NCBI GenBank assembly: GCA_938049385.1
Contig: CALIBQ010000038.1
Location: 33,974 to 97,973, forward strand
DNA from: an uncultured Anaerolineae bacterium
GTDB lineage: Bacteria > Chloroflexota > Anaerolineae > JACIWP01
Length of the DNA stretch: 64,000 nucleotides
Direction of reading: 5' to 3'
Shown here piece after piece: positions 4,240-60,337 of the stretch; position 1 is the first letter of the stretch, and the number at the start of each line of letters is the position of its first letter. A model generated the notes under the pieces. It was not told where the DNA came from. It saw only the letters and a list, made by a program, of their open reading frames with translations, and made no database searches. A program made the translations under genes and the position numbers.

Positions 4240-4500
4240 GGGTTATGCATAAGGCCCGGCAGTTGAAACTGCGGCTACGTCTGCGAAGTCAGCCTGTTCC
4301 GACTGCGCGAGGCCTGCAGAGGCAGGCTTCGCAGTTATTGCTGTGGCTTATGGAATTTCATCCTCGCGCCTTGTCTGGTGCTGAAGCACCAGTTTCATGA
4401 GCCAGGTGCTTCAGCACCAGGCTCACGGTGCCAAGCCCCGCAGGGGCTTCGCTTCATAAGCCGGCGGCTGGGATGCCGCCGGCGAACCTGCTTGAGACCA
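4240..4500. repeat. intergenic repeat cluster: truncated copy of the MITE-like family (core 4255-4350) followed by hairpin module (4380-4490)
   Basis: core GCAGTTGAAACTGCG...CTGCGAAGTC...GCAGGCTTCGCAGTTATTGCTGTGGCTT matches copies at 13047, 22279, 31977, 43616, 49374; second module CCAAGCCCCGCAGGGGCTTCGCTTCATAAGCCGGCGGCTGGGATGCCGCCGGCGAAC recurs at 49531-49590. Confidence 0.6.
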
Positions 4501-5094: not shown

Positions 5095-5183
5095 TGGTGC
5101 CGAAGGAGGGATTTGAACCCACACGGGCGTTATGCCCACTGCGCCCTGAACGCAGCGTGTCTGCCAGTTCCACCACTTCGGCA
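5095..5183 (-). tRNA. tRNA-Leu (anticodon CAG), long variable arm, CCA encoded
   Basis: minus-strand RNA GCCGAAGTGGTGGAACTGGCAGACACGCTGCGTTCAGGGCGCAGTGGGCATAACGCCCGTGTGGGTTCAAATCCCTCCTTCGGCACCA; anticodon stem CTGCG/CGCAG with loop TTCAGGG; T-stem has one U-U mismatch. Confidence 0.8.
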
Positions 5184-31976: not shown

Positions 31977-32137
31977 GAGGGTATGGGAAAAAGTCCAAAC
32001 ATGCAATCTGTGGAAGCGGCCTAGCGGCTGAAGCCACGGCAATAATTGCGAAGCCTGCCTGCGCAGACCGACTTCGCAGGCACACAGCCGCAGTTTCAAC
32101 TGCCAGGCGATGAGCCAATATCTTTTTCGACACCCTC
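31977..32137. repeat. MITE-like repeat copy with imperfect TIRs (GAGGGTATGGGAAAAAG ... CTTTTTCGACACCCTC)
   Basis: same orientation and near-identical core as copy at 13047 (GTCCAAACATGCAATCTGTGGAAGCGGCCTAGCGGCTGAAGCCACGGCAATAATTGCGAAGCCTGCCTGCGCAGACCGACTTCGCAGGCACACAGCCGCAGTTTCAACTGCCAGGCGATGAGCCAATAT). Confidence 0.75.
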
Positions 32138-38919: not shown

Positions 38920-38993
38920 GTACCCCCGGCGCGATTCGAACGCGCAACCAACTGCTTAGAAGGCAGCTGCTCTGTCCGTTGAGCTACGGGGGC
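38920..38993 (-). tRNA. tRNA-Arg (anticodon TCT)
   Basis: minus-strand RNA GCCCCCGTAGCTCAACGGACAGAGCAGCTGCCTTCTAAGCAGTTGGTTGCGCGTTCGAATCGCGCCGGGGGTA; anticodon loop CTTCTAA; A20 and C35 Arg identity elements present. Confidence 0.8.
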
Positions 38994-41677: not shown

Positions 41678-43033
41678 TCAGATACCCAGGATCGCTTTGG
41701 CGATGCGGAAGTAAATGTACAGGCCGGTCGCATCCACCATGGTTGCCATGAACGGGCCGGAGACGATGGCCGGGTCAATCTTCAGCCGGGCGGCGATGAT
41801 GGGCAGGAGCGACCCCAGGCAGTTGGCCCAGAAGACGATCGCCACGGCGGCAGTGCCCACCGCGATGGCCAGCAGGGGATGTGAGGGATCCCAGGTAATC
41901 GCGCGGATAAAGGCGGCCGCCCCCATCATAAGCCCCAGGGAGAATCCGACTCGCGCCTCGTGCCAGAAGACGCGCAGAGCATCGCGGATGCGGATTTCAC
42001 CTGTGGCCAGGCCGCGGATGATGGTGGAGGTGGTCTGAGAGCCGGCATTGCCGCCCGTGCCGATCAGCAGTGGGATGAAGAACGAGAGCGCCACCACCGC
42101 CGCCAGCTCATGCTCGAAATGCCGCAGGACCGTGCCGGTAAACGTGTCCGCCACGAAGAGCAGGAACAGCCAGCCCATGCGCTTGCGCGCCACCTGGAAC
42201 ACCGAGGTATCCAGATAAGGCTTGTCCAGGGGCAGGGAGCCGCCAAAGCGCTCCATGTCCTCGCTCTGCTCATCTACGATGACGTCCACGATGTCGTCCA
42301 CGGTGATGACGCCGATGAGGTGGTTGCCGGCATCCACCACGGGCAGGGCGTACAGGTCATAGCGGCGCATCAAATGCGCGCACTGCTCCTGGTCCGCCTC
42401 CGCCGGCACACTGATCACATCGGTGGACATGATCTCGCCCAGGCGCTGGTCAGGGCCGGCTTTGATCAGCTCATACAGGCTGACAATCCCCTGCAGGCGG
42501 TCCTGGTTGTCCACGATAAAGAGATAATGCACCGCCTCTTCCTTTTCAGGGGACCACTGGCGCACCGCTTCCAGTGCCTGGCGCACCGTCATCCGCTCGC
42601 GCAGGGCCAGGAACTCAGAGGTCATCAGGCCGCCGGCGGTCTCATCTTTATGGAGCAGGAGCGGACGCACGTCATCCGCATCCCGCATGCGTGCCAGCAC
42701 CTCGCTGGCCTGCTCCGGCTCCATATCGCCCAGCAGGTCCGCCGCCTCATCCGTCTCCATCTCGTCCACGATGTCGGATAGGGTTTCCAGCGGCAGGCGC
42801 GCGGCGATCTCCGCCGCCTCCTCGTCTTCCAGTTCTTCGAGGATATCGGCGGCCTGTTCGGTTTCCAGTTGGGTCAGCAGGGCTTCCTGCTGGTCGGGTT
42901 CCAGTTCGCTGAGGATGTCCGCCTGATCAGGTGGGTACAGGCGTTCGATGATGTCGATCGCGCCGGCCAGGTCGTTGTGCTCCAGCCGGTCGCGCACGCG
43001 GTCCAGGATGGTATCCAGCACGCGCTGCTCCAT
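41678..43033 (-). CDS. mgtE: magnesium transporter MgtE
   Basis: ORF 41678..43087; start at MEQRVLD (ATG 43033, GGAGGA RBS); MgtE N-domain, tandem CBS, TM domain with GTGGNAGSQ. Confidence 0.9.
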   Translation of the reverse strand: MEQRVLDTILDRVRDRLEHNDLAGAIDIIERLYPPDQADILSELEPDQQEALLTQLETEQAADILEELEDEEAAEIAARLPLETLSDIVDEMETDEAADLLGDMEPEQASEVLARMRDADDVRPLLLHKDETAGGLMTSEFLALRERMTVRQALEAVRQWSPEKEEAVHYLFIVDNQDRLQGIVSLYELIKAGPDQRLGEIMSTDVISVPAEADQEQCAHLMRRYDLYALPVVDAGNHLIGVITVDDIVDVIVDEQSEDMERFGGSLPLDKPYLDTSVFQVARKRMGWLFLLFVADTFTGTVLRHFEHELAAVVALSFFIPLLIGTGGNAGSQTTSTIIRGLATGEIRIRDALRVFWHEARVGFSLGLMMGAAAFIRAITWDPSHPLLAIAVGTAAVAIVFWANCLGSLLPIIAARLKIDPAIVSGPFMATMVDATGLYIYFRIAKAILGI

Positions 43034-43282
43034 AGTCGTCCTCCTCTGTCTGCCAGGATGAATGTGGACGGAGGACGGTGGGTCCACCTTCTCCTGGCAC
43101 CGGAGGCCGAACAGCGCGTCAGAGGCTGGGGTCCATTACGGCGCGGAGAAGGTGGGCGCACCGCCCTTACGTGATGATGGGTCGTCTTCGGAAAGGGTAT
43201 TGGATTCTGGTACTGCGATCACGTTCATGGTTCTCCTTCTCCGCCGCAAAGTTGGTCTCATCAGGCCGGCCGGCAGGCAACA

Positions 43283-43310
43283 AAAAAGGCCACAGCACAG
43301 GCTGCGGCCT
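43283..43310 (-). terminator. minus-strand rho-independent terminator (GGCCGCAG-CCTGTG-CTGTGGCC + TTTTTT) upstream of the mgtE leader
   Basis: read on the reverse complement of 43283-43310; 8-bp stem (one G-U) followed by T6; no annotated minus-strand gene ends here. Confidence 0.5.
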
Positions 43311-43615
43311 CGCCCAGGGCAGGCGCGGACTGCACCCGGCAGTCCGGCTCCCGCCTACGGCAGGTCGAGCTGTCCTGTCACAGCCAAGCCTCGCTTGTCA
43401 AAGTGGTTCATCCACCCACTGCCAGTCATCCCTATATGGGGACGACTGTCATCACTGCTGGAAGCCTTCAACGTCGTCATACTCCATCGGTTGCGAACAG
43501 TTCCGCCGGCCCCTTGTTTCGTCCGCCGGCACATCCACCTACGCTGTCATTTCGAAAGCCATCCCAAAACTATGCTAAATGTACCACGCGCGGGTGAGAA
43601 TGTCAACTTTTTGTC

Positions 43616-43755
43616 AGGAGGATGTGGAAAAGGCCAAGATTTGCGGGTATTGGCTCACTGCCTGGCAGTTAAAACGGCGGGCCTGCGCCGGCTTCGCGAA
43701 ACCTGCGCAGGCGGGCTTCGCAGTTATTGCCGTGGCTTCAGCCGCCAGACCATGG
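43616..43755. repeat. MITE-like repeat copy (inverted orientation; right end degenerate)
   Basis: GAGGATGTGGAAAAGGCC...GGTATTGGCTCACTGCCTGGCAGTTAAAACGGCGGGCCTGCGCCGGCTTCGCGAAACCTGCGCAGGCGGGCTTCGCAGTTATTGCCGTGGCTTCAGCCGCCAG. Confidence 0.65.
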
Positions 43756-43923
43756 CGCGCACTGATATATAACTGGCATACTTGACATCGGCATTGAAAT
43801 ATGATACTTTGTAATTAGCGCGCAGGCGCTTTTCTTTTGCGGCCCGCTGCATACATTCGATATACCAGCGTTACGCACGCCGGCCGCCTATCATTTTTCT
43901 GCCCCAAAAAGGAGGAAGGAAAC

Positions 43924-45342
43924 ATGCTACAACGATTTGTGGAGTTTCTGACCCCAGCAGATGTAACGCGCATCCATGAGCAGTCCATGCGCCTGCTGGA
44001 AGAAGTGGGGGTGGAAATGCCGGTGGAGGCGGCGCGCGAGGCGCTCCGCCAGCGCGGCGCGCGGGTCGAGGGCACGCGCGTCCACCTGCCCCGCCGGCTG
44101 GTGGAAGAAAGCATCCGCCTGGCCCCCTCCCGCTTCACCATTCACGCCCGCAACCCGCAGAAAGACGTGGTGGTCGGCGGCGGCAGTTCCGTCTTCGCGC
44201 CAGGTTACGGCGCACCGTTCCTGATGGATTACGAGAAGGGCCAGCGCCACGCCACTATGGAGGATTACCAGAACCTGGTGCGCATCATTGACGCACTGCC
44301 CAACCTCGACCTTTCCGGGCACCTGTTGGTGGAGCCGCACGACGTGCCGGCCGGCAGTGCTCACCTCCATATGCTCATGGCGCACCTGCGCTACTCCGAC
44401 AAGCCCTTCATCGCCTCCAGCAACGGACAAAAGGGCGCCGAGGCCACGCTGGACATGGCCGGCATCGTGTTTGGCAGTCGCGACGCCCTGCGCAATAAGC
44501 CGGTCACCATCGCGCTCATCAACACCCTCAGTCCCCTGAGCTTCGCCACGGAAATGCTGGAAGCATTGATGGCCTTCGCCGAATGGGGTCAGCCTGTGGT
44601 CATCGCCAGCATGGCGCAGGCCGGCGCCACCGCCCCCGTCACCCTGGCCGGCATGATCGCCCAGATCAACGCCGAAATCCTCAGCGGCGTCGTCCTTGCC
44701 CAGGCCATCAATCCGGGCACACCGGTCGTCTACGGCTCCACCAGCACCATCATGGACATGAACACCGCCGCGGCCGCCATCGGCAGTCCGGAATATTCCA
44801 TCCTGGTCGCCTGCCAGGCGCAGATGGGCCGCTTCTACGGCCTGCCCAGCCGCTCCGGCGGAAGCCTGACCGATTCGCAGGTGCCTGACGCCCAGGCCGG
44901 CCTGGAGTCTATGATGTCCCTGCTCACCACTGTCAACGCCGGCATTGACTTTGTCCTGCACGCCGCCGGCATTCTCGGCTCGTACCTCACCTTCTCCTAC
45001 GAGAAGCTGGTCATGGACCATGAAATCTGCGGTATGGTGCGGCGCTACCGCCAGGGTCTGCTGGTGGATGACGAGTCCCTGGCCTTCAGCACCATCGCCG
45101 CCGTGGGGCCGGGCGGCAACTTCCTGATGGAAGAGCACACCCTGCGCCACTTCCGCGGCGCCTTCTACATGCCGAAGCTGTGTAACCGCGATGCCCTGCC
45201 GGCCTGGCAGGAAAAGGGGTCCCTCGATATGGCTCAGCGCGCCCATCAGTACTGGCAGAGGGTCCTGCAGACCCATCAGCCGGCGGAGCCGGACGCCGCA
45301 GTCATCCGCGCCCTCGAGGCATACGTCGAGCGGCACTCCTGA
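43924..45342 (+). CDS. MttB-superfamily methyltransferase (non-pyrrolysine; glycine betaine/quaternary amine:corrinoid methyltransferase-like)
   Basis: ORF 43837..45342; start at MLQRFVEF (ATG 43924, AGGAGGAAGG RBS); full-length similarity to trimethylamine methyltransferase fold (TIM barrel) with no in-frame amber codon. Confidence 0.75.
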   Translation: MLQRFVEFLTPADVTRIHEQSMRLLEEVGVEMPVEAAREALRQRGARVEGTRVHLPRRLVEESIRLAPSRFTIHARNPQKDVVVGGGSSVFAPGYGAPFLMDYEKGQRHATMEDYQNLVRIIDALPNLDLSGHLLVEPHDVPAGSAHLHMLMAHLRYSDKPFIASSNGQKGAEATLDMAGIVFGSRDALRNKPVTIALINTLSPLSFATEMLEALMAFAEWGQPVVIASMAQAGATAPVTLAGMIAQINAEILSGVVLAQAINPGTPVVYGSTSTIMDMNTAAAAIGSPEYSILVACQAQMGRFYGLPSRSGGSLTDSQVPDAQAGLESMMSLLTTVNAGIDFVLHAAGILGSYLTFSYEKLVMDHEICGMVRRYRQGLLVDDESLAFSTIAAVGPGGNFLMEEHTLRHFRGAFYMPKLCNRDALPAWQEKGSLDMAQRAHQYWQRVLQTHQPAEPDAAVIRALEAYVERHS

Positions 45343-45383: not shown

Positions 45384-46013
45384 ATGGCGCAAACCGCGAC
45401 CGAACGAGCCTACCGCACCATTCGCGAGAAGATCATCCGCCTGGAGTATGCCCCCGGCGAACTGCTGGTCGAATCCGGCCTGGCGGAGGAGCTGGGCACT
45501 GGCCGCACCCCGGTGCGCGAGGCCCTGAAAATGCTGGCCTGCGAGAACCTGGTGGTCATCATCCCCCAGCGCGGCATCTATGTCGCGGACATCAGCCTGA
45601 CCGACCTGCAGGAGATCGCGGAACTGCGCCTGGCGGTGGAAGGGCTGGCCGCGCAGTTGGCCGCCCAGCGCATCACACCCCAGCAGTTGGAACGGCTCCG
45701 CTCCCTGACCCATCAGCTCGCCCACACTGCCCCCGACGATGTAGAGAAGCTGATGGAGATTGACCGCCAATTTCATCTGACCGTGGCAGAGGCCGCCGGC
45801 AACAAGCATCTGGCCGACGTCATCGTCAGCCTGTACGACAAATCCCTGCGGCTCTGGCGGCTGGCACTGACCCGTGTGGGCGCGCTGGCCAGCTCCATTG
45901 AACGCCATGAGGAGCTCCTGGACGCGCTGGAATACGGCAACGCCGCCAAAGCGTCCGAGATCATGCAGGAGCATGTGCGCGATTTCCATCGGCGCATGCG
46001 TGAGGCGTTCTGA
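45384..46013 (+). CDS. GntR-family transcriptional regulator (FadR/FCD subfamily)
   Basis: N-terminal wHTH (LVESGLAEELGTGRTPVREALKML), C-terminal FCD helical domain. Confidence 0.85.
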   Translation: MAQTATERAYRTIREKIIRLEYAPGELLVESGLAEELGTGRTPVREALKMLACENLVVIIPQRGIYVADISLTDLQEIAELRLAVEGLAAQLAAQRITPQQLERLRSLTHQLAHTAPDDVEKLMEIDRQFHLTVAEAAGNKHLADVIVSLYDKSLRLWRLALTRVGALASSIERHEELLDALEYGNAAKASEIMQEHVRDFHRRMREAF

Positions 46014-49373: not shown

Positions 49374-49600
49374 GGAGGGTGTGGAAAAAGACTCATTGCC
49401 TGGCAGTTGAAACTGCGTCTGGTGCCTGCGAAGTCGGCACAGGTCGACTTCGCGAAGCCTGCGCAGGCAGGCTTCGCAGGTGTTGCCGTGGCCTCAGCCG
49501 CCAAACGCTAGCGCACCAGGCTTACGCTACCAAGCCCCGTAGGGGCTTGGCTTCCTGAGCCGGCGGCTTCCAGCCGCCGGCGAACTTCCGACAAGCGGAT
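49374..49600. repeat. MITE-like repeat copy (inverted orientation) plus hairpin module
   Basis: GGAGGGTGTGGAAAAAGACTCATTGCCTGGCAGTTGAAACTGCG...CTGCGAAGTCGGCACAGGTCGACTTCGCGAAGCCTGCGCAGGCAGGCTTCGCAGGTGTTGCCGTGGCCTCAGCCGCC; second module CCAAGCCCCGTAGGGGCTTGG...AGCCGGCGGCTTCCAGCCGCCGGCGAAC as in 4431-4490. Confidence 0.7.
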
Positions 49601-60264: not shown

Positions 60265-60337
60265 GCGCCCGTAGCTCAACGGACAGAGCGCCTGACTTCG
60301 AATCAGTAGGCTGGGAGTTCGAGTCTCCCCGGGCGCG
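60265..60337 (+). tRNA. tRNA-Arg (anticodon TCG)
   Basis: GCGCCCGTAGCTCAACGGACAGAGCGCCTGACTTCGAATCAGTAGGCTGGGAGTTCGAGTCTCCCCGGGCGCG; D-arm identical to the tRNA-Arg(TCT) at 38920; anticodon loop CTTCGAA; 27:43 is C-T mismatch; CCA not encoded. Confidence 0.7.

Follow-up and report, generated by a model that had tools for sequence, protein, structure and literature searches.

Only for the enterobacterial genes mgtA, mgtB and corA has it been worked out how an acidic and proline-containing leader peptide controls a Mg2+ transporter gene, the ribosome being itself the Mg2+ sensor. The mgtE genes of Firmicutes are classically riboswitch-controlled, the riboswitch known for mgtE being the M-box. 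In leaders of the MgtL/corL type, acidic and proline residues make elongation Mg2+-sensitive, an effect that bL31 counteracts (bioRxiv 10.1101/2021.02.02.429294; PMC11552253). Translation of such DE/P nascent peptides is aborted more at low Mg2+, which is what MgtL exploits (bioRxiv 10.1101/2021.02.02.429294), and mgtA and corA expression varies inversely with the translation of the upstream open reading frame (uORF) (PMC11552253). Here we describe the leader of an mgtE gene found in a stretch of 64,000 nucleotides (the window) from an uncultured bacterium of the class Anaerolineae (Chloroflexota). This leader runs approximately from 43606 to 43034 on the minus strand, to which all leader features given below belong, and we interpret it, with moderate confidence, as a two-module control region of mgtE that depends on leader peptides in the manner of MgtL and MgtQ.

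The likeness to the MgtL/mgtA and corL/corA leaders of Salmonella and E. coli is that a short ORF rich in acidic and proline residues precedes a Mg2+ transporter gene, within its leader. There, efficient translation of the uORF is the OFF condition and impaired elongation at low Mg2+ switches the gene ON through alternative stem-loops, and the same logic is proposed for the leader described here. Compared with MgtL, the transporter is another one (an MgtE channel instead of a P-type ATPase or CorA), the phylum is different, and there is no similarity in sequence or to the Mg_sensor element. The motif stands at codons 2-5 in MgtL and at codons 14-18 here, and the enterobacterial output is Rho-dependent termination, whereas the candidate outputs here are the sequestration of the Shine-Dalgarno sequence (SD) and AUG, together with an intrinsic terminator. 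In the case of mgtQ, acidic codons free the ribosome-binding site (RBS) of mgtB from a sequestering stem-loop (PMC8092293), and our leader shares with it a ribosome-destabilising acidic uORF, an RBS within an inhibitory stem-loop and mutually exclusive helices that overlap the uORF. However, mgtQ is an intergenic uORF of 8 codons, inside an operon, whose translation promotes that of mgtB (PMC8092293), while here the uORF has 30 codons, is located in a 5' leader with a competing helix of ~27 bp, and its completed translation would repress. Two successive short ORFs in a long leader, each with its own stem-loops, are also a feature of mgtM and mgtP of the Salmonella mgtCBR leader. Both of these act on transcription, sensing ATP and Pro-tRNA (PMC3641672), whereas here an intrinsic terminator closes the first module (module A), and the second (module B) would act on translation initiation. 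With the M-box (ykoK, RF00380) of Firmicutes mgtE the leader has in common the regulated gene family and an intrinsic terminator, but it is without the conserved three-helix aptamer core and its conservation is found in ORFs that appear to be translated. Finally, the SRC-65-1 mgtE motif is confined to the gammaproteobacterial genus Thioalkalivibrio, and its description as a riboswitch candidate includes no uORF (PMC11109978); by this description it is alike in being a candidate cis-regulatory RNA of mgtE with a long imperfect stem whose base contains the SD and AUG. Literature searches for a leader peptide of mgtE, or for one in Chloroflexota, found no description, and acidic/proline leader-peptide control of mgtE has apparently not been described before. 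If our interpretation is correct, Chloroflexota, a distant phylum, would have evolved the same sensing principle independently for mgtE, in a widespread leader family, the clade studied here would possess a two-tier device (a terminator plus SD sequestration), and it could be argued that Mg2+ sensing through nascent peptides is a general bacterial strategy.

The mgtE gene of the window (41678-43033, minus strand) codes for a protein of 451 aa with MgtE_N, two CBS and MgtE domains (Pfam). It is 98% identical to the protein of another Anaerolineae metagenome-assembled genome, L001 (JAPWUQ010000039.1), and its homologues at 59-70% identity number in the thousands, the named ones being labelled as Anaerolineae, Caldilineae or Chloroflexota. 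We have compared the leader with those of 80 metagenomic mgtE loci and of 12 loci of the closest homologues. Leaders with both modules (tandem leaders) are represented by 7 sequences from 6 lineages, and module A could be aligned across 8 lineages. The full two-module order is common to L089, L090/91, L092/93, L099 and L100, in which MgtE is 66-70% identical, and to L001/9/10: a promoter, an SD with a first uORF starting at UUG or GUG (uORF-A), an internal hairpin, a conserved block, a terminator, a second SD, a second uORF (uORF-B), the anti-SD and SD pair, and mgtE.

A coding signature is seen in uORF-B (43136-43228), which has 30 codons from an AUG at 43228 to a UAA at 43138-43136, is preceded by the SD GGAGAAGGAG (43233-43242) and encodes the peptide MNVIAVPESNTLSEDDPSSRKGGAPTFSAP. 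This peptide is identical in L001, L009 and L010, and all three nucleotide differences between the window and L001 are synonymous third-position changes, while the leader flanking the ORF shows many changes and indels between the same two sequences. Homologues are present in L089, L090, L092, L099 and L100; a tblastn search with the peptide retrieved close relatives only, the other uORF homology having been seen by eye and by motif. Codons 14-18 (43175-43189) spell the acidic-proline motif EDDPS, the proposed site of stalling or abortion. The pattern [DE]3-P-[PS] is invariant in 7/7 tandem sequences, although it is written in different ways (EDDPS, EDEPP, DDDPS, DDDPP and EEEPP), and the pairwise nucleotide differences within it number 8, 0 and 46 at codon positions 1, 2 and 3. 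Upstream of mgtE, 40% of 81 loci have a uORF with at least four D/E/P within six residues, while the reverse complement gives 6% (p ~1e-8). Because of these substitution patterns the small ORFs were judged to be translated, and both uORF-A and uORF-B are probably so. Downstream of the motif, uORF-B contains a small hairpin, GGGCG-GUG-CGCCC (43166-43154). The distance from the Pro codon to the base of this hairpin is 11 nt (CCA to GGGCG, 43180-43166), as it is in L033, a leader of the wider family described below, and the comparison of these two leaders suggests that the hairpin would be located at the ribosome entry channel while the acidic-Pro motif is decoded.

The 3' half of uORF-B (43138-43168) and the start of mgtE compete for the same partner. 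This partner is the anti-SD region (43068-43108), within which GGCCUCC (43108-43102), GGAGAAGGUGG (43094-43084) and CGUCCUCC (43077-43070) can be distinguished, and the mgtE SD is GGAGGACG (43044-43037), followed by the AUG at 43033-43031. In the minimum free energy (MFE) fold a long hairpin of -53.9 kcal/mol (43020-43118) covers the SD, the AUG and codons 2-5 of mgtE, pairing GGCCUCC with the SD and GCGCUGUUC with codons 2-5. We refer to it as the OFF hairpin. In the same fold the SD region of uORF-B pairs with the stop region of uORF-B to give helix I (domain energy -35.9 kcal/mol), whose 5' strand overlaps the uORF-B SD and reaches upstream to ~43252. Across the 7 tandem leaders helix I, anti-SD:SD and the start-codon pairing are 91.6% paired, compared with 39-51% when the strands were slid and with none of 500 shuffles being as good, for a structure that was derived from those same 7 sequences. 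A compensatory change from GCU:AGC to GUU:AAC is seen in the OFF hairpin, by way of a synonymous change in mgtE codon 2, and the changes of L001 in the apical helix retain pairing. Both anti-SD:SD and helix I have the support of covariation in the 7 relatives.

The alternative fold is centred on CCACCUUCUCC (43155-43145), in the putative anti-anti-SD strand of uORF-B, which is perfectly complementary to GGAGAAGGUGG over 11 bp (duplex energy -21.5 kcal/mol), just as the initial annotation had noticed. The two are part of a longer interrupted helix, 43168-43138 with 43104-43068, of ~27 bp and -49.8 kcal/mol, which against dinucleotide shuffles has z = -5.5 (1/300 as good). Its segments are GGGCGGUG:CACCGUCC, CCCACCUUCUCC:GGAGAAGGUGG and GCGCC:GGUGC, with a domain energy of -57.3 kcal/mol, and it is the MFE structure of the nascent transcript before the SD has been synthesised. 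Once the transcript is complete, the fold that keeps this ON-candidate helix has -91.1 kcal/mol and the MFE fold -99.1 kcal/mol (a cost of 8 kcal/mol), and the SD is left in a local fold of just -7.4 kcal/mol. The complementarity of the uORF-B 3' half to the anti-SD region was matched by 1/300 shuffles in the window, 0/300 in L001 and 1/300 in L092, and is marginal in L089 and L090 (18/300 each) and L099 (27/300). The initial annotation was right about a leader with alternative pairings and a sequestered RBS, but CCACCUUCUCC:GGAGAAGGUGG is better read as the core of an ON-state anti-anti-SD pairing that a translating ribosome would disrupt than as belonging to an OFF state in which the RBS is sequestered. 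The annotation had also noted that GTCCTCC can pair with the SD. The complementarity is there (CGUCCUCC:GGAGGACG, -14.0 kcal/mol), but the MFE fold uses the second anti-SD, GGCCUCC, and not CGUCCUCC. As main OFF helix, CGUCCUCC:SD is possible, yet GGCCUCC together with the long hairpin is preferred both by the MFE fold and by the comparison with relatives. As in uORF-controlled SD sequestration of the mgtQ/erm type, the SD and AUG are buried, and in an alternative that excludes this the anti-SD region is paired with a stretch of the uORF.

Module A begins with a sigma-70-type promoter (43578-43606; TTGACA, a 17-nt spacer and a TG-extended TACATT), the sole minus-strand promoter-like site that the scan gave within 42900-44000. 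All of 8 related leaders keep its -35 hexamer, its TG and, in the -10, the positions T/A/A/T. Transcription would start near 43571, so that the leader, which the initial annotation had rightly taken to be long and structured, would measure ~540 nt and not ~250 nt. The first small ORF, uORF-A (43355-43471), has 38 codons from a UUG at 43471 to a UAG at 43357-43355, with an SD (GGAG) at 43485-43482, and encodes (M)KASSSDDSRPHIGMTGSGWMNHFDKRGLAVTGQLDLP. Its start was set by homology to the ORFs of L089, L090, L092, L099 and L100, with their SD, UUG or GUG and S-E-S-S-D-S-S-S, and its frame is open in both the window and L001. Only the Ser/Asp-rich N-terminus of the peptide ((M)SE[SP]SDSSS...) is conserved, the C-terminal two thirds varying and changing frame. 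Within uORF-A the MFE fold shows a hairpin of 10 bp, CAGUCGUCCC-CAUAUA-GGGAUGACUG (43423-43448), and hairpins of other sequence occur at the same place in relatives (GUUCCC/GGGAAC in L089, GCCCC/GGGGC in L090). Close to the end of the ORF the alignment revealed a conserved block of 16 nt, ACAGGACAGCUCGACC (43363-43378), kept in 6/8 module A sequences and recognisable in the remaining two (L100 and L011). Since the uORF-A of different relatives reads this block in three different frames, it appears to be selected as RNA.

After the block comes a further hairpin (43354-43317) and then the intrinsic terminator (43280-43311 in the terminator scan, essentially the 43283-43310 of the initial annotation), a candidate attenuator. 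Its stem, GGCCGCAGC/GCUGUGGCC, is G+C-rich and of 11 bp, the loop (CUGU) has 4 nt and a U-tract follows, the whole reading GAGGCCGCAGC-CUGU-GCUGUGGCCUU and then UUUUGUUG; the scan gave 3 terminator-like sites where 0.7 were expected. The stem (GGCCGCAGC / GCUG[CU]GGCC) is nearly invariant in the 8 lineages while the surrounding sequence diverges. The window has a single copy of it, and relatives have it nowhere but upstream of mgtE, at a distance of 238-272 nt, or of 103 nt in L011. In this last locus (63% identity) the homologous uORF and terminator directly precede mgtE, without a second ORF, so that mgtE would be reachable there by read-through alone. The terminator, which had been considered not attributable to any annotated gene, therefore belongs to the mgtE leader, its stem being mgtE-specific in eight lineages. 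Likewise, the ~300 bp that had been left as unexplained non-coding DNA hold a consensus promoter and a conserved small ORF (43311-43606), the segment 43681-43721 further upstream being a dispersed palindromic repeat. As a side observation, CCUGCC is present in three direct copies around the terminator region (43364-43359, 43322-43317 and 43276-43271), the third of which is not kept in L001, and GGCGGG at 43354-43349, right after the uORF-A stop, is able to pair with any of them.

A shorter leader with a single module is present in about half of the sampled Chloroflexota mgtE loci (at least 36 of ~80), and we have described it by a covariance model, R1, that covers 36 loci among L014-L073 (for example L033:784-911). 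In it a consensus promoter stands directly before a uORF of 16-40 codons with an acidic/Pro/Ser-rich start (e.g. MDEIKPEDGPPSSRKGHLSRLHPANRII), followed by a GGGAC-N4-GUCCC hairpin and the stop codon; then come CCCC(N)GG..GGC, GCCUCCGGGG as anti-SD and the SD CCCGGAGGUG-AUG. In the alignment of the 36 sequences anti-SD:SD is 93% paired, and the alternative, in which the anti-SD joins the element that follows the uORF stop, 82.8%. Both pairings beat slid and shuffled controls, and one anti-SD column covaries with both partners; if our interpretation is correct, the family would supply a compact set of natural variants with three-way covariation for testing it. The uORF stops at the same position whatever the stop codon (TAG 14, TAA 11, TGA 2), directly abutting the anti-anti-SD element (CCCCNGG) in 18/27 leaders, and in 16/24 the anti-SD is predicted to pair with this post-stop element before the SD is transcribed. 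The R1 motif is absent from Rfam and merits curation as a family of its own.

By peptide motif and architecture, the leader of the window would be a divergent relative of the R1 family. Both have a uORF with a peptide of the type E-D-G/D-P-P/S...S-R-K-G, a small hairpin in the uORF, an anti-SD:SD hairpin and an element at the 3' end of the uORF that pairs with the anti-SD. They differ in that the anti-anti-SD of the window lies inside the uORF and that of R1 just after the stop, in the SD hairpin (~100 nt in the window, ~35 nt in R1) and in the additional module A with its terminator. Besides these, the orthologues of 65-66% identity L096 (1361-1500), L097 and L098 have a third type of mgtE leader, short, with a consensus promoter and the hairpin ACCGCAGG...CCUGCGGU and without a recognisable uORF or terminator. 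In another lineage the leader of mgtE is a single-uORF one (MDESDKRTEVLDPFTDTNGVSQPATGL), and directly after mgtE comes a gene for a P-type cation ATPase (Cation_ATPase_N, E1-E2, Cation_ATPase_C; L094:3531-5350, L095:3456-5350), which may be another Mg2+ importer belonging to this operon.

The mechanism that we propose from this anatomy is as follows. The majority of transcripts would probably end at the module A terminator and, since the interval from the terminator to uORF-B shows no promoter, mgtE would need read-through. In the transcripts that continue, the helix 43168-43138:43104-43068 would form first during synthesis and leave the SD of mgtE in weak pairing only (ON). On its way to the UAA of uORF-B a ribosome would melt this helix, and the RNA would then collapse into the hairpin 43118-43020, burying the SD, the AUG and codons 2-5 (OFF), with the uORF-B SD and stop region closing as helix I. 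When Pro17 or Ser18 is in its P site, a ribosome would cover the RNA as far as ~43165-43162, just short of the ON helix, so stalling or abortion at EDDPS would keep the ON fold because the footprint ends just before the helix. As acidic/proline nascent chains stall or destabilise ribosomes more at low Mg2+, the synthesis of MgtE would therefore increase when Mg2+ is scarce. That Mg2+ is the signal is suggested by the function of the regulated gene and by the motif.

Several observations weigh against this interpretation. The model hinges on co-transcriptional kinetics, and the evidence for this organism consists of sequence and predicted folds. When folding at equilibrium was repeated with the ribosome footprint masked, the probability of the mgtE SD being unpaired was 0.26-0.29 in every state. 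This kind of folding is blind to a kinetic switch, and as it shows no dependence on state the switch must be kinetic or factor-assisted. Under the same masking the terminator forms with P>=0.88 in every state. Although uORF-A, with SD and start, is located upstream of the terminator as in a trp-type attenuator, an arrangement kept in 8 lineages, no antiterminator helix overlapping uORF-A beats shuffled controls. Against the terminator arm, the 3' region of uORF-A does no better than shuffles (45-264/300 as good), and the duplex energies of ACAGGACAGCUCGACC with that arm equal those of shuffled controls. The candidate antiterminator partners of the arm were rejected, being inconsistent between relatives and mostly GGCC palindromes. 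In L100 the complementarity between uORF-B and the anti-SD region is not significant against 300 shuffles, and the origin of the 91.6% pairing figure in the sequences that it describes has to be added here. EDDPS, at codons 14-18, is also placed further into the ORF than the most effective motifs of E. coli, which are N-terminal; there, intrinsic ribosome destabilisation (IRD) peaks in the ~10 residues at the start, and a longer nascent chain ahead of the motif weakens it (bioRxiv 10.1101/2021.02.02.429294). Lastly, the R1 model has no match in the window at E<=10 (best score 0.5 bits with the filters off), and on this score the window was rejected as a member of the core motif of Chloroflexota leaders.

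Among the alternatives, we consider it unlikely that module A (43571-43280), or the whole leader, is a new metal or metabolite riboswitch in which the RNA binds Mg2+ or another ligand and settles both whether the terminator or read-through prevails and whether the SD is sequestered or free, with the small ORFs being incidental or secondary. The known classes of such RNAs gave no support. With Rfam 15 at the gathering score the 64-kb window contains three tRNAs only (38921-38993, minus strand; 60265-60337, plus strand; 5098-5182, minus strand), and at E<=10 there was nothing credible across 42900-44000, the top match being a terminator look-alike. Neither the M-box (RF00380) nor any other Rfam family was found at the gathering score in 40 related mgtE loci, nor any family at E<=1 in 9 closer relatives. 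The M-box covariance model remained unmatched in the window and 49 related loci, and the Mg_sensor model (RF01056) in the window and closer relatives. The absence of covariance-model matches argues against the M-box and the other Rfam families for this leader, and the riboswitch or M-box reading of the initial annotation is not upheld by the Rfam scan that it had itself suggested; an intrinsic terminator upstream of a Mg2+ transporter gene is present, but is not in itself diagnostic of an M-box. For a novel class speak the folding of module A, which is stronger than that of dinucleotide shuffles (z = -2.9 for 43575-43275, and z = -2.1 for the downstream part, 43280-43020), the RNA-level selection on the 16-nt block read in three frames, the unusually invariant terminator stem, the failure to find a ribosome-dependent antiterminator and the classical riboswitch control of mgtE in Firmicutes. 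However, RNAalifold recovers the terminator alone from module A, without a conserved multi-helix core, and the 5' part of the module has large indels even between the window and L001. Conservation sits in two small ORFs with coding signatures, rather than in a ligand-binding multi-helix core: both retain their SD and start, together with a peptide part that is conserved, as N-terminus or as motif, while third positions vary, and in the wider family the placement of the stop codon is under selection.

A narrower version, of similarly low probability in our estimation, confines the idea to module A, in which ACAGGACAGCUCGACC and the terminator stem would make up a new signal-responsive RNA, either a riboswitch for Mg2+ or another ligand or the target of an antitermination protein, working independently of ribosomes. 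Control of module A by riboswitch-like or protein-dependent means is possible, and the leader would then be a hybrid, having first a sensor for transcription, be it RNA or protein, and then a nascent-peptide sensor for translation. The analysis flags the conserved block and the terminator in this respect.

It is also improbable, to our mind, that module A is an independent gene for a small protein (~38 aa) or a small RNA (~290 nt), with mgtE and uORF-B transcribed from an unrecognised promoter in 43280-43243. Promoter, SD, ORF and a very strong terminator (predicted to form with P>=0.88 whatever the masking) do make a complete unit for which no antiterminator was detected, gene callers annotate the L092 homologue as a gene of 50 aa, and the small minus-strand transcript ending at the terminator that the initial annotation suggested is plausible, starting from the 43606 promoter. 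Against this, the minus-strand scan gave no promoter-like site between the terminator and uORF-B, and this spacer of 40-55 nt is unconserved among relatives. The C-terminal two thirds of the uORF-A peptide are unconserved and change frame. The unit is found solely before mgtE and at a fixed distance, directly preceding the gene in L011, and the relatives with a single module place the same type of promoter directly before a leader resembling that of uORF-B.

The motifs D-P-P and P-P are elongation factor P (EF-P)-dependent stall sites. A role of the uORFs as sensors of amino acids or tRNA charging (Ser/Asp for uORF-A, Pro/Asp for uORF-B), of EF-P, or of osmotic or proline status as with Salmonella mgtP, would agree with these motifs, with the Ser/Asp codons of uORF-A, with the Asp-Asp-Pro of uORF-B and with the response of mgtP to proline-charged tRNA (PMC3641672), but it is quite improbable, given that the regulated gene is a Mg2+ channel in a neighbourhood without any link to Ser, Asp or Pro metabolism, that the conserved codons, acidic and proline, are the signature of Mg2+-sensitive ribosome destabilisation, and that there are no runs of one regulatory codon as in leaders of the trp/his/leu type.

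A protein-coding explanation of the intergenic region was rejected, as no Pfam family was found in the plus-strand ORFs 43062-43772 and 43579-43785, in a minus-strand ORF of 59 aa or in the ORF 43815-44141. Among the orthologous loci, a similarity search with the intergenic region matched only near-identical relatives, plus the terminator of L011, and similarity to more distant orthologous loci was not borne out. On its other flank the region is bounded by a gene for an MttB-family methyltransferase (43924-45342, plus strand), just downstream of which is a GntR/FCD regulator gene (45384-46013). The segment on this side, 43755-43887, is AT-rich and ~80% identical to L001, with a plus-strand TTGACA at 43782-43787 and TATGAT/GATACT-like hexamers at non-canonical spacing, and is probably the promoter/operator of the MttB-family gene. 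Between this segment and the mgtE leader, and outside the latter, is the palindromic repeat mentioned above, GCGAAGCCNGCCUGCGCAGG (43681-43721), resembling repetitive extragenic palindromic (REP) elements. It is dispersed, with 6 matches in the 64-kb window against 0.32 expected, and copies are also located at 4313-4332, 32048-32077 and 49452-49477. The copy at 43681-43712, a 16-nt inverted repeat, is missing at the equivalent position in L001, and the repeat has weak look-alike matches to CRISPR-DR28 in Rfam.

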